Of a stretch of DNA of 64,000 nucleotides, positions 3,926 to 19,479 are shown one piece after another. Made by a program: the position numbers and the translations under genes. Positions within the stretch are counted from its first letter, which is position 1; each line of letters starts with the position of its first letter. Under the pieces are notes generated by a model. The model was not told where the DNA came from, searched no databases, and saw only the letters and a program-made list of their open reading frames with translations. The stretch lies in NCBI RefSeq assembly GCF_054482525.1, contig NZ_CM137006.1. One strand, written 5' to 3'.

Positions 3926-5887
3926 TTACCCTTTTCGCTTCGGCAATGTTTTCAGCAGCTCATCCGGACTTACGGATGCCACTACGCTTCCCGGTAACGG
4001 CATTTTCAGTATGTGATTTTTGATTTTGCCAATGACGTGCATCTCGCATGGGCGGCAATCAAACTTTAGCGTTAATACTTCATCGCCGTTAACCAGTTGC
4101 ATTGGCGTCGCCTTCCAGCTTTTGATATTGCCTTTCGCCTGTTTCGGGCACAGATTAAAGGCAAAGCGCAGACAATGCTTGGTGATCATCACCGGGACTT
4201 CGCCCTTCTCTTCATGTGCCTCATACGCCGCGTCAATCAGCTGCACACCATAGCGATGATAAAATTCACGCGCTTTCTGGTTGTATACGTTCGCGAGGAA
4301 ACTCAGATGCGTTTGCGGATAAACCGGCGCAGGATCAGCAACCGGTTTACGGCTGCCCCGCTGGTAACTGGCAAGACGTGCAGCATCCAGCATGTCGGCG
4401 GCTTCACGGCGGAACTGGTTTAACAGACTGTTTGATACAAACAGCGCACCCGGCAAATTAATTTGCACATCGCGGGCGTAATAGATGGTTTGCCCCAGTT
4501 TTGCCAGACCATCCTTTAGATTGTTCATTGCTTTTTCGGCGTTATTGGCTTCGTCGAAATGCCCGTCCAGCGTATGCGTGATGCTGACACCCTCTTCACT
4601 GGTGAGGGTCAGAATCAGTTGTTCCTGCCAGCCGCCCAGTTCAATGTCTACCGCCACCCGACGTTCGCTGGATGTTTTTGTCAGTGCCTGCTGCCAGTTA
4701 TGATCAAGATTACGGTTTAGTGGGTGATGCGGGCGAATTTTGTGCAACTCTGCTGGCATTTCATTGGGCCAGACGCGGTACTGATTTTCTCCGGTTTTCT
4801 CGACCGTATTGGCACGAAAGCCGACGACTTCACGTTTAATCATCACGTTCAGGCCATCGCCATTTGCCAGTGGTTCGGAAACGGCAACATCGAGATGATC
4901 TTTCGCCACTTTCAATACTTCACCCACCGGCAGGCCGATAAATTTCGGCGAATCGAACGCGCCAATATCGCCTTTACGGGCATTCACAAAATAATCTGTG
5001 CTACCACGGTTGAAAGTCTTTTCCGTCGATGGAACAAAGAAATGTTCAGTACGACCTGATGAAGCACGCGCCAGATCGCCACGTTCTTCAATAATGGCAT
5101 CCAGCATTTGGCGATAATGCGCGGTGATATTCTTCACGTAGCTCATATCTTTGTAACGCCCTTCAATCTTGAAGGAGCGTACGCCAGCATCAATCAGCGC
5201 GCCGAGGTTGGCAGTCTGATCGTTATCTTTCATCGACAGCAGATGTTTTTCATAGGAAACCACCCGCCCCTGATCGTCTTTCAATGTGTATGGCAAACGG
5301 CACGCCTGCGAGCAATCGCCACGGTTGGCGCTACGCCCTGTTTGCGCATGAGAAATGTAGCACTGACCCGAATAGGCCACGCACAGTGCGCCATGAATAA
5401 AGAATTCAATGGTCGCGTCCGTGGCCTGGTGAATCGCGCGGATCTGCTCAAGATTCAGCTCTCGCGCCAGCACAATCTGCGTAAAGCCAACATCAGAGAG
5501 GAACTTCGCTTTTTCGACTGTACGAATATCGCACTGCGTACTGGCGTGCAGTTCAATCGGCGGAATATCAAGTTCCAGAATCCCCATATCCTGAACAATC
5601 AGCGCATCGACGCCGGTCTGGTAGAGGTTGGTAATCAGCCGTTGCGCAGGTTCCAGCTCATCATCATGCAAAATGGTGTTAAGCGTGACAAAAATTTTTG
5701 CACCATAACGATGGGCAAACGGCACCAGTTCGGCAATATCTTTCAGGCTATTACTGGCATTATGACGGGCACCAAAACCAGGGCCGCCGATATAAACAGC
5801 ATCGGCACCGTGCAAAATAGCTTCGCGGGCAATGGCGGCATCGCGTGCCGGGCTTAACAGTTCAAGTCGATGAGAAGATACGGTCAC
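3926..5887 (-). CDS. ydcP: Peptidase U32-family protein (23S rRNA 5-hydroxycytidine synthase RlhA)
   Basis: Track ORF 3926..5929 (667 aa). The 653-aa form I recall for K-12 starts at the in-frame GTG at 5887 (VTVSSHRLELLSPARDAAIAREAILHGADAVYIGGPGF...). Confidence 0.85.
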   Translation of the reverse strand: MTVSSHRLELLSPARDAAIAREAILHGADAVYIGGPGFGARHNASNSLKDIAELVPFAHRYGAKIFVTLNTILHDDELEPAQRLITNLYQTGVDALIVQDMGILELDIPPIELHASTQCDIRTVEKAKFLSDVGFTQIVLARELNLEQIRAIHQATDATIEFFIHGALCVAYSGQCYISHAQTGRSANRGDCSQACRLPYTLKDDQGRVVSYEKHLLSMKDNDQTANLGALIDAGVRSFKIEGRYKDMSYVKNITAHYRQMLDAIIEERGDLARASSGRTEHFFVPSTEKTFNRGSTDYFVNARKGDIGAFDSPKFIGLPVGEVLKVAKDHLDVAVSEPLANGDGLNVMIKREVVGFRANTVEKTGENQYRVWPNEMPAELHKIRPHHPLNRNLDHNWQQALTKTSSERRVAVDIELGGWQEQLILTLTSEEGVSITHTLDGHFDEANNAEKAMNNLKDGLAKLGQTIYYARDVQINLPGALFVSNSLLNQFRREAADMLDAARLASYQRGSRKPVADPAPVYPQTHLSFLANVYNQKAREFYHRYGVQLIDAAYEAHEEKGEVPVMITKHCLRFAFNLCPKQAKGNIKSWKATPMQLVNGDEVLTLKFDCRPCEMHVIGKIKNHILKMPLPGSVVASVSPDELLKTLPKRKG

Positions 5888-5959
5888 ATTCTTATCCAGT
5901 AGCTGAAAAATGGCGGCTATTTTAGCCACAAGCGCGACGTTGCGAAATAGTTTTCCCGC

Positions 5960-6496
5960 TTAACTGCGTGGGTAATGGATGAGAGAATGAAAATGTACGA
6001 TTTGCTCCCCACCATTACGATAGATATGCGTAACGTCTGCAGCAAATCGAGCGCCTTCTCCACAATTAAGGCTCTGCCATTCACCATCAACGCACAGATC
6101 AAGTTGCCCATCAATGACGACAACATGTTCGATTACTCCCTTCTCATGGGGCGTCGATTCACTTAATGCACCTGGTGCCATCTGAATCGAGAAGTGTTCA
6201 AAGCAGAGTTGTGGATCATAAGGAAACAGTGAAGTGATCACCATCGCCTGCTGTTGCGGATCATAAACTGAAGGCGTATCGGACTGCGGCGGAGAAATAA
6301 ATGTCGAAAATGGCACGTTCAACCCGGTGGCAATTTTCCATAATGTCGCGACCGTCGGGCTGGACTCATTACGCTCAATCTGCCCTAACATCGCTTTAGA
6401 AACGCCCGTCGCTTCTGCCAGTCGCGAAAGACTCCAGCCGCGCTGCTGACGTAGCTGTTTAAGTGTGGTGGATAAAAAGCGAGTGAGATTTTCCAT
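5960..6496 (-). CDS. ydcN: XRE-family HTH transcriptional regulator with C-terminal cupin domain
   Basis: 178-aa ORF MENLTRFLSTTLKQLRQQRGWSLSRLAEATGVSKAMLGQIERNESSPTV... (HTH) followed by a cupin-like C-terminus. Confidence 0.85.
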   Translation of the reverse strand: MENLTRFLSTTLKQLRQQRGWSLSRLAEATGVSKAMLGQIERNESSPTVATLWKIATGLNVPFSTFISPPQSDTPSVYDPQQQAMVITSLFPYDPQLCFEHFSIQMAPGALSESTPHEKGVIEHVVVIDGQLDLCVDGEWQSLNCGEGARFAADVTHIYRNGGEQIVHFHSLIHYPRS

Positions 6497-6587
6497 GTGA
6501 CTCCTCCGGCAAAGCGGAAGTTTATCACTTGTGCGTTATAACGGACAAATGCTACGGTGCCTGTACGCTATAACGCACGAGGTGACC

Positions 6588-7760
6588 ATGCGTCTGTTTT
6601 CTATTCCTCCACCCACGCTACTGGCGGGGTTTCTGGCGGTATTAATTGGCTACGCCAGTTCAGCGGCAATAATCTGGCAAGCAGCGATTGTCGCCGGAGC
6701 CACCACTGCACAAATCTCTGGCTGGATGACGGCGCTGGGGCTGGCAATGGGCGTCAGTACGCTGGCTCTGACATTATGGTATCGCGTACCTGTTCTCACC
6801 ACATGGTCAACGCCTGGCGCGGCTTTGTTGGTCACCGGATTACAGGGACTAACACTTAACGAAGCCATCGGCGTTTTTATTGTCACCAACGCGTTAATAG
6901 TCCTCTGCGGCATAACGGGACTCTTTGCTCGTCTGATGCGCATTATTCCGCACTCGCTTGCGGCGGCAATGCTTGCCGGGATTTTATTACGCTTTGGTTT
7001 ACAGGCGTTTGCCAGTCTGGATGGTCAATTTACGTTGTGTGGCAGTATGTTGCTGGTATGGCTGGCAACCAGGGCCGTTGCGCCGCGCTATGCGGTAATT
7101 GCCGCGATGATTATTGGGATCGTGATCGTTATCGCGCAAGGTGACGTTGTCACAACTGATGTTGTCTTTAAACCCGTTCTCCCCACTTATATTACCCCTG
7201 ATTTTTCGTTTGCTCACAGCCTGAGCGTTGCACTCCCCCTTTTTCTGGTGACGATGGCATCGCAAAACGCACCGGGTATCGCAGCAATGAAAGCAGCTGG
7301 ATATTCGGCTCCTGTTTCGCCATTAATTGTATTTACTGGATTGCTGGCACTGGTTTTTTCCCCTTTCGGCGTTTATTCCGTCGGCATTGCGGCAATCACC
7401 GCGGCTATTTGCCAAAGCCCGGAAGCGCATCCGGATAAAGATCAACGTTGGCTGGCAGCTGCCGTTGCCGGCATTTTCTATTTGCTCGCAGGTCTGTTTG
7501 GTAGTGCCATTACCGGGATGATGGCTGCCCTGCCCGTAAGTTGGATCCAGATGCTGGCAGGTCTGGCGCTGTTGAGTACCATTGGCGGCAGTTTGTATCA
7601 GGCGCTGCATAATGAGCGTGAGCGCGACGCGGCGGTGGTGGCATTTCTGGTAACGGCAAGTGGATTGACGCTGTTCGGGATTGGTTCTGCGTTTTGGGGA
7701 TTAATTGCCGGAGGCGTTTGTTACGTGGTGTTGAATTTAATCGCTGACAGAAACCGATAA
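6588..7760 (+). CDS. ydcO: BenE-family (benzoate-like) inner-membrane transporter
   Basis: Track ORF begins at GTG 6531; the 391-aa form starts at ATG 6588 (MRLFSIPPPTLLAGFLAVLIGYASS...). Polytopic hydrophobic protein. Confidence 0.85.
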   Translation: MRLFSIPPPTLLAGFLAVLIGYASSAAIIWQAAIVAGATTAQISGWMTALGLAMGVSTLALTLWYRVPVLTTWSTPGAALLVTGLQGLTLNEAIGVFIVTNALIVLCGITGLFARLMRIIPHSLAAAMLAGILLRFGLQAFASLDGQFTLCGSMLLVWLATRAVAPRYAVIAAMIIGIVIVIAQGDVVTTDVVFKPVLPTYITPDFSFAHSLSVALPLFLVTMASQNAPGIAAMKAAGYSAPVSPLIVFTGLLALVFSPFGVYSVGIAAITAAICQSPEAHPDKDQRWLAAAVAGIFYLLAGLFGSAITGMMAALPVSWIQMLAGLALLSTIGGSLYQALHNERERDAAVVAFLVTASGLTLFGIGSAFWGLIAGGVCYVVLNLIADRNR

Positions 7761-7794
7761 TAAAAAGCGCCATCTAACGATGGCGCGTCTGGAA

Positions 7795-8463
7795 CTACTT
7801 TTTGTTAACGTCAAACATGGTGGCATCGGTCGCCATGTCATCAATAACTTGTTTAATATTTTCGAAAGCCATTGGCGTACTTTCGTTATTCAGGTCTTTA
7901 CCTTCGCCCTGACGAACGACTTTGATAACCGGTTTATTAGTCGCTGCATCAATCAGCTCACCTTCAAAATACAGGCGAGTATCCATGGTACGGTGGCCCG
8001 TCGCCATTTGCGTCCCCGCGACCACTAATGCGACAGGAACCACTTCATAGAATTGCAGCCCTTCTTTGCTGGTATCAACACCGGTAATGGCCCCACGGAA
8101 AATCAGACTACGCGGCCCAGCGGTGGTAACCAGTGGTTTACGCTGCGCTATCGCTTCTTTCATTTCGGTGTTGGTATAGTTCAAAATTTTATCCAGAACT
8201 TTCTGCCCTACCTGGGTTGAAGGTTTCGGTACCGGATAATAAGTGACTGGGTTCCAGACTATGCTGTCATATTTGCTTTGATCAAAACTCGGGTCTACCC
8301 AACGTAAAACAGGTTTACCTGTTGCTGAGGTTGTTTCTTTTAAATCAGAGTAATTGTTTAAAAAACCAGAATATTTATCTGGCTGGGTGATTTTAGAGGC
8401 ACAACCAGACAGAGCCAACAAGCCGCATAAAGCTGCAACTTTCGCAATTGATGTGGTACGCAT
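7795..8463 (-). CDS. ydcL: Lipoprotein (DUF3313)
   Basis: 222-aa ORF with lipobox MRTTSIAKVAALCGLLALSGC. Confidence 0.85.
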   Translation of the reverse strand: MRTTSIAKVAALCGLLALSGCASKITQPDKYSGFLNNYSDLKETTSATGKPVLRWVDPSFDQSKYDSIVWNPVTYYPVPKPSTQVGQKVLDKILNYTNTEMKEAIAQRKPLVTTAGPRSLIFRGAITGVDTSKEGLQFYEVVPVALVVAGTQMATGHRTMDTRLYFEGELIDAATNKPVIKVVRQGEGKDLNNESTPMAFENIKQVIDDMATDATMFDVNKK

Positions 8464-18518: not shown

Positions 18519-18744
18519 CGACCAAAAACCTCTTTGCGTCACATTTTTACAACAATTATGGCAGAGAAGAATAATGCCATTGGAATGAAGAGAGTAACGA
18601 ATGATTAAACTGGCTAAACCGAATGACGAAAAATTCTGGAAAACAGCACGCAATTTCGTCAGGTGATTATTTTCGTCCCTAAGGAAACCACATAGGATGC
18701 TCACGGGTGCCTGAGACTTTCTGTTTTCAGGCTAACCGGGAATC

Positions 18745-18810
18745 AGAAAGACGAAGGCCCCGACCGATATTTCTATCAACCGAGGCCAACGAATGAACCA
18801 AGCAATTCAG
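18745..18810 (-). ncRNA. sokB: SokB antisense RNA; approximate placement
   Basis: Placed by analogy with hok/sok architecture (Sok lies antisense to the hok leader / mok start). Ends not determined from sequence. Confidence 0.3.
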
Positions 18811-18850
18811 ATGTTAGCCTCTTACCCGCCATCCGGCAAGGAAAAAGGCT

Positions 18851-19000
<150 letters not shown>

Positions 19001-19415: not shown

Positions 19416-19479
19416 CTTCCGATGTAGACCCGTATTCTTCGCCTGTACCACGGGTCGGTTTTAGTACAGGCGTTTTCTT
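19416..19479 (+). ncRNA. rydC: RydC small regulatory RNA (Hfq-dependent)
   Basis: cttccgatgtagacccgtattcttcgcctgtaccacgggtcggttttagtacaggcgttttctt matches my recollection of RydC including the 5' seed CUUCCGAUGUAGACCCGU; perfect TATAAT at 19405-19410 just upstream; ends in hairpin plus U-tract; convergent with cybB. Confidence 0.7.

Follow-up and report, generated by a model that had tools for sequence, protein, structure and literature searches.

A base-exact unoccupied IS609 target between ydcO and ydcL in a PCN033-like Escherichia coli

The genes ydcL and ydcO of Escherichia coli K-12 are separated by a copy of the insertion sequence IS609. In the DNA analysed here (64,000 nucleotides of contig NZ_CM137006.1, assembly GCF_054482525.1; hereafter the window), the same two genes lie only 34 bp apart. 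This raises the question of whether the short junction is a site that the element never entered or one that it has left. An earlier note had read it, by comparison with an IS609-family transposase gene (insQ/ydcM) placed between the two genes in K-12, as an empty insertion site in a non-K-12 lineage. The genes concerned are the following.

6531 to 7760, + strand: open reading frame of ydcO (reading-frame listing)
6549 to 7760, + strand: ydcO gene, with the start used in the RefSeq annotation of strain PCN033 (reading-frame list, translation, Pfam)
7795 to 8463, − strand: ydcL (reading-frame list, Pfam, RefSeq annotation of PCN033)

The ydcO start equivalent to that of K-12 is at 6588, and the stop codon TAA occupies 7758-7760. 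The product is a transporter of the BenE family (Pfam PF03594, E 1e-161), and ydcL encodes a DUF3313 lipoprotein (PF11769, E 1e-63). Both genes converge on the spacer 7761-7794, which in the reading-frame listing is all the DNA between the two frames. The noted separation of 34 bp is correct: the frames end at 7760 and 7795, and the same gap is annotated in E. coli PCN033, where RefSeq names the genes ydcO and ydcL and the sequence is identical to the window. The 34-bp spacer is also found in O157:H7, ABU 83972, strain 550 and SW070912. Over 1 kb spanning the junction, the window matches PCN033 at 100% identity, and over 5 kb it matches SCU-102 and 19KM1776 equally well, which agrees with the assignment to a non-K-12 lineage.

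The spacer reads ATAAAAA-GCGCCATC-TAAC-GATGGCGC-GTCTGGAAC on the + strand. A G+C-rich hairpin followed by a T-run stands here at the 3' end of ydcL, so that the spacer is essentially the predicted rho-independent terminator of this gene.

7757 to 7786, − strand: predicted intrinsic terminator of ydcL (terminator scan and RNA fold)

On the − strand, the hairpin runs from 7786 to 7767 and consists of the stem GCGCCATC, the loop GTTA and the stem GATGGCGC. According to the consensus terminator scan of this strand, it is perfect, with eight pairs, six of which are G-C. The tail TTTTTATTAT after the hairpin (7766 to 7757, − strand) overlaps the TAA stop codon of ydcO. The fold has an energy of -16.7 kcal/mol and a z-score of -3.8; 200 shuffled sequences were all less stable.

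The annotation of MG1655 (NC_000913) bears out the arrangement that the earlier note gave for K-12. The record places IS609, 1748 bp in length, at 1503161-1504908 between ydcL and ydcO, so it is this element and not a 34-bp junction that K-12 has at the locus. The element contains insQ/ydcM (b1432), described in the record as a 'putative RNA-guided DNA endonuclease', and the pseudogene yncK (b4578). When IS609 was removed from K-12 in silico, the remaining sequence aligned with window positions 8019 to 7470 over 550 bp with no gaps and seven mismatches (98.7% identity), just as expected of an empty insertion site. The left flank of K-12, ending in GCGCTTTTTAT, and the right flank, beginning with TATCGGTTTC, are joined seamlessly in the window. 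With a slash marking the boundary, the K-12 junctions are ...GATGGCGCTTTTTAT/CCGGTGCGCC... on the left and ...GGAGGATGTCAA/TATCGGTTTCTGTCAGCG... on the right, and the − strand of the window at the same point is ...GATGGCGCTTTTTAT/TATCGGTTTCTGTCAGCG.... The gapless alignment and the junction readings therefore put the insertion point between 7760 and 7759, within the stop codon of ydcO, with no bases duplicated or lost. The parts of the site are the following.

7760 to 7763, − strand: TTAT, the target tetranucleotide of IS609 (comparison of the K-12 and window junctions)
7730 to 7759, − strand: right-hand flank of the unoccupied site, formed by the 3' tail of ydcO (sequence comparison with K-12)

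The left end of the K-12 element starts directly 3' of TTAT on the − strand of the window, which is the ydcL sense, and the 30 nucleotides of 7730-7759 are identical to the sequence abutting the right end of the K-12 element. The reading frames carry the same trace. In the window, ydcO ends in CGA TAA (...RNR); in K-12, it ends in CGA TAT TGA (...RNRY), where TGA comes from the right end of the element. YdcO of K-12 is one residue longer because IS609 splits the TAA stop codon, and the ydcO annotation of K-12 overlaps the last four bases of IS609, in agreement with a stop codon supplied by the element. The two loci thus share their chromosomal place and flanking genes. The window differs from MG1655 in having the K-12 flanks joined base for base without the element, so that the tail of the ydcL terminator directly abuts ydcO. 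The site is a base-exact unoccupied IS609 target, and the 34-bp spacing is due to the strain lacking the element that K-12 carries at that spot. The absence of an IS609-type insQ element holds for the whole 64-kb window, in which blastn with the 1748-bp query for IS609-like DNA and tblastn for InsQ- or TnpA-like coding sequence gave chance-level matches only.

The earlier note had named insQ as an IS609-family transposase gene. Its family and its place at the K-12 locus are right; the word transposase is not, since insQ corresponds to tnpB and the transposase gene tnpA is yncK. The K-12 InsQ protein matches the Pfam families OrfB_IS605, Cas12f1-like TNB and HTH_OrfB_IS605, and by this domain content it is a predicted TnpB RNA-guided nuclease. 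The yncK gene of K-12 is a pseudogene with an internal stop, and TnpA of an O157:H7 copy is intact (Y1_Tnp, E 2e-41). Taken with K-12 as the reference, IS609 has the content of the IS200/IS605 family, namely the domains of a Y1 HUH transposase and of TnpB.

Target specificity was read at six independent sites: ydcL/ydcO, yedK, DUF3251/nrdR, TetR/ytfB (three strains) and gltX/yfeD. In all six, TTAT is followed directly by CC(G/A)GTGCGCC at the left end, and GGAGGATGTCAA closes the right end; the latter always ends in GATGTCAA, terminating in TCAA. The right-end hairpin CCACGTCC-TTCA-GGGCGTGG has a fold z-score of -2.1. The left end folds no better than shuffled sequences (z = -0.4), and the related motif CCCCATCCTTCAGGGCGGGG is visible there. 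In terms of known systems, IS608 of Helicobacter pylori, on which the mechanism of the IS200/IS605 family is modelled, uses the target TTAC and has a right end in TCAA. IS609 is like it in the fixed tetranucleotide, the lack of target duplication and the TCAA terminus; the IS608 model includes subterminal hairpins and scarless excision, as in the IS200/IS605 family. The two elements differ in the tetranucleotide, TTAT in IS609 and TTAC in IS608, and in the arrangement of genes, tnpA and tnpB being divergent in IS609, which is compared here at the level of sequence only. The top strand of the K-12 copy is the + strand at 1.50 Mb, which we take from the positions of oriC and dif to be the lagging-strand template. 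This orientation agrees with the bias towards the lagging-strand template that the IS200/IS605 family reportedly shows.

Elements of the IS200/IS605 family move by 'peel-and-paste', in which insertion occurs 3' of a fixed short motif with no target duplication and excision leaves no scar (PMC10055086). By this route, IS609 would have entered K-12-type chromosomes as a single strand 3' of TTAT, between 7760 and 7759, splitting the TAA of ydcO without duplicating the target. The junction of the window is regarded as the unoccupied allele of a well-known IS609 polymorphism, and the PCN033-like lineage has most likely never had the element at this place.

The polymorphism is already known, very common and ordinary. 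Of 5,426 complete genomes of E. coli, 5,015 contain IS609-like sequence. The ydcL/ydcO site is occupied in 3,251 of these 5,426 genomes (about 60%), occupied meaning at least 80% coverage of a query made of the K-12 IS609 with 600-bp flanks. The junction is contiguous in 2,135 (about 4 in 10), where contiguity means at least 80% coverage of the window-junction query and small insertions can count as contiguous. In the remaining genomes, the match breaks at query position 460/461, equivalent to 7759/7760 of the window. Among the strains listed, the site is empty in ABU 83972, O157:H7 strains and the ST131 strain 81009, and occupied in K-12 derivatives and BL21. By phylogroup, the listed strains with an empty site are presumably B2, E and D; those with the element there are presumably A. 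Such a pattern fits a gain of IS609 in a single A/B1-like clade comprising the occupied genomes, the named strains being few. The empty state is common and therefore says only that the window does not come from a lineage carrying IS609 at this site.

Outgroup loci were collected by a scan seeded with the YdcL peptide, one genome per species, which returned 80 loci. Three Escherichia lineages (L014-L016) share 86-89% identity with the window across 4 kb, where K-12 reaches 98.3%. In all three, ydcL and ydcO are convergent and the empty 34-bp junction is kept. Because these more distant lineages have the empty junction, the empty state appears most likely to be ancestral; likewise, it was most likely kept from an ancestor rather than restored in the PCN033-like lineage, as far as the compared sequences can indicate. 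The T-runs of the outgroups differ slightly (TTCGGAT, TTCTGAT and TTCTTAT), which is why the 23-mer of the empty joint, AAYCGNTAATAAAAAGCGCCATC, had no matches in the collection of species-representative genomes. The flanks of the window are 98.7% identical to K-12 over 550 bp and 97.2-98.4% identical to other empty-site strains over 1 kb. This divergence is comparable and gives no sign that the window descends recently from a chromosome with IS609 at the site.

One more divergent genome has a trace of IS609 at the same point. Escherichia sp. MOD1-EC7003 (L013) carries a 46-bp IS609 relic at 4705-4750, exactly after TTTTTAT. In this relic, the start of the left end is fused to the terminus of the right end through the shared hairpin core CGTCCTTCAG. 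Directly beyond it, most of ydcO and a part of sutR have been deleted. The genome has 90-96% identity to the window, which places it further away than every E. coli strain in the comparison. Either the site was struck independently in this organism, or the insertion is older than a single event in one clade, or it has passed from lineage to lineage.

The locus differs in other species and genera as well. E. albertii NBRC 107761 (L017, about 4690-4730) has lost ydcO from its place downstream of ydcL, and only approximately 20 bp resembling the 3' tail of ydcO are left after the terminator. In most other Enterobacteriaceae, among them Citrobacter, Enterobacter, Klebsiella, Kluyvera and Raoultella (L018-L092), some 2.0 kb separate ydcL from ydcO. 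The idea that an insertion sequence fills this interval was rejected, since it holds a transporter gene of the EamA/DMT family (302 amino acids) and a regulator gene of the AraC family (289 amino acids). An example is the following.

4707 to 6670 of the Citrobacter youngae locus (L020): interval with the EamA and AraC gene pair

The pair is missing from Escherichia, Atlantibacter, one Salmonella subspecies and a few Citrobacter. The tight ydcL-ydcO junction of Escherichia may therefore itself be derived.

The PCN033-like lineage is not free of IS609. The earlier note had advised a search for copies elsewhere in the genome, and such a copy was found in PCN033, the strain identical to the window. 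Its chromosome has two additional places matching the composite query, one of which was located next to ytfB. This is a full-length IS609 of 1748 bp at 4731465-4733212, within a TetR-family gene adjoining ytfB. It is 98.2% identical to the K-12 copy and is flanked by TTAT on the left, with TCAA closing the right end. Its TnpB reading frame is intact and agrees with InsQ at 393 of 402 residues; the annotation lists its tnpA as a pseudogene, and the sequence flanking its right end is unrelated to the ydcO tail. IS609 is also seen at the ytfB site in O157:H7 and in an ST131 strain.

The ytfB copy gives some ground for the first alternative, that an ancestor was once occupied and TnpA excised IS609 precisely, leaving a scarless 'donor joint' between 7759 and 7760: the element has evidently been active in the lineage, and the MOD1-EC7003 relic at the same point could mean an old insertion. 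The family is known to excise without a scar (PMC10055086), so that a site never occupied and one precisely vacated look alike in sequence. Yet the junction is empty in the three more distant Escherichia lineages, and it is also empty in 2,135 genomes, including strains presumably of groups B2, D and E, which excision could explain only by repeated, independent losses, each of them exact. Moreover, the copies examined at ydcL/ydcO of K-12 and at ytfB of PCN033 both carry tnpA as a pseudogene, and a functional TnpB guided to the joint would select against the cells surviving excision (PMC10055086). Excision is accordingly considered an unlikely origin of this junction.

A second possibility is that an occupied allele was replaced by an empty one through homologous recombination, or that the occupied allele spreads, by recombination or TnpB homing, and was not received here. 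E. coli recombines frequently, and the rise of identity between MOD1-EC7003 and the window from 90% to 96% near ydcL hints at mosaicism. In addition, TTAT and the next 30 nucleotides, which are the same as those flanking the right end in K-12, make the site a formal target of homing. Against this stand the putative nature of homing by E. coli InsQ and the flanks of the window, which are about as divergent from K-12 as from the empty-site strains. This second possibility, in either form, is very improbable. That a repeat was collapsed or omitted in assembly can practically be dismissed, since no point in its favour was found, the flanks of K-12 meet here to the exact base, and the identical junction recurs in the complete genomes of many independent strains. 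The reading preferred here remains that of a site never occupied in the PCN033-like lineage.

TnpB with its omega-RNA cuts donor joints in the case of ISDra2 and of Geobacillus elements of the IS605 family (PMC8612924, PMC10055086). The window resembles the targets of these homing systems in that a putative TAM, TTAT, stands directly before a sequence identical to the right-end flank of the K-12 element. The nucleases of ISDra2 and Geobacillus do cut such joints, whereas cutting by InsQ of E. coli with its guide RNA is putative. By analogy, 7730 to 7759 would be the place where a guide RNA read from the right end and loaded on a K-12-type TnpB is expected to pair, and the site would be a substrate for the complex of this TnpB with its guide. 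The ytfB copy of PCN033 differs in this respect, because its right-end flank, from which the guide would be templated, is not the ydcO tail. The presence of IS609 in 60% of E. coli at the site, the MOD1-EC7003 relic and a nearby IS200C give rise to the further proposal that the tail of the ydcL terminator and the ydcO stop codon form a recurrent hot spot of IS200/IS605 elements instead of having received a single past insertion, the polymorphism being shaped by TnpB homing into empty alleles. This proposal is tentative and rather doubtful. As for the IS200C, strain 103 (L003) carries it at 1966-2671 (709 bp, tnpA annotated) in the A5/T5 run corresponding to 7762-7766 of the window, 2-7 bp from the insertion point of IS609. 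CFSAN018748 has approximately 710 extra bp, which are probably IS200C too.

Searches of the literature on IS609, insQ and ydcM returned incidental mentions only, with no study of the ydcL/ydcO site. The significance of the empty site is small, and no new biological question is opened by it. It confirms the window as non-K-12, PCN033-like E. coli with a clean base-exact unoccupied IS609 site. The site could be used as a presence/absence marker in lineage typing, and TTAT with the ydcO tail could serve as a natural 'donor-joint' sequence for testing InsQ/TnpB of E. coli as a putative guided nuclease. With respect to RNA families, when the window and the K-12 locus were searched against Rfam at the gathering threshold, neither the junction nor the IS609 right end gave a match. 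Elsewhere in the window, the same search matched the sok antitoxin RNA at 18705-18856 (+ strand, 110.6 bits) and the small RNA RydC at 19416-19479 (+ strand, 92.5 bits).
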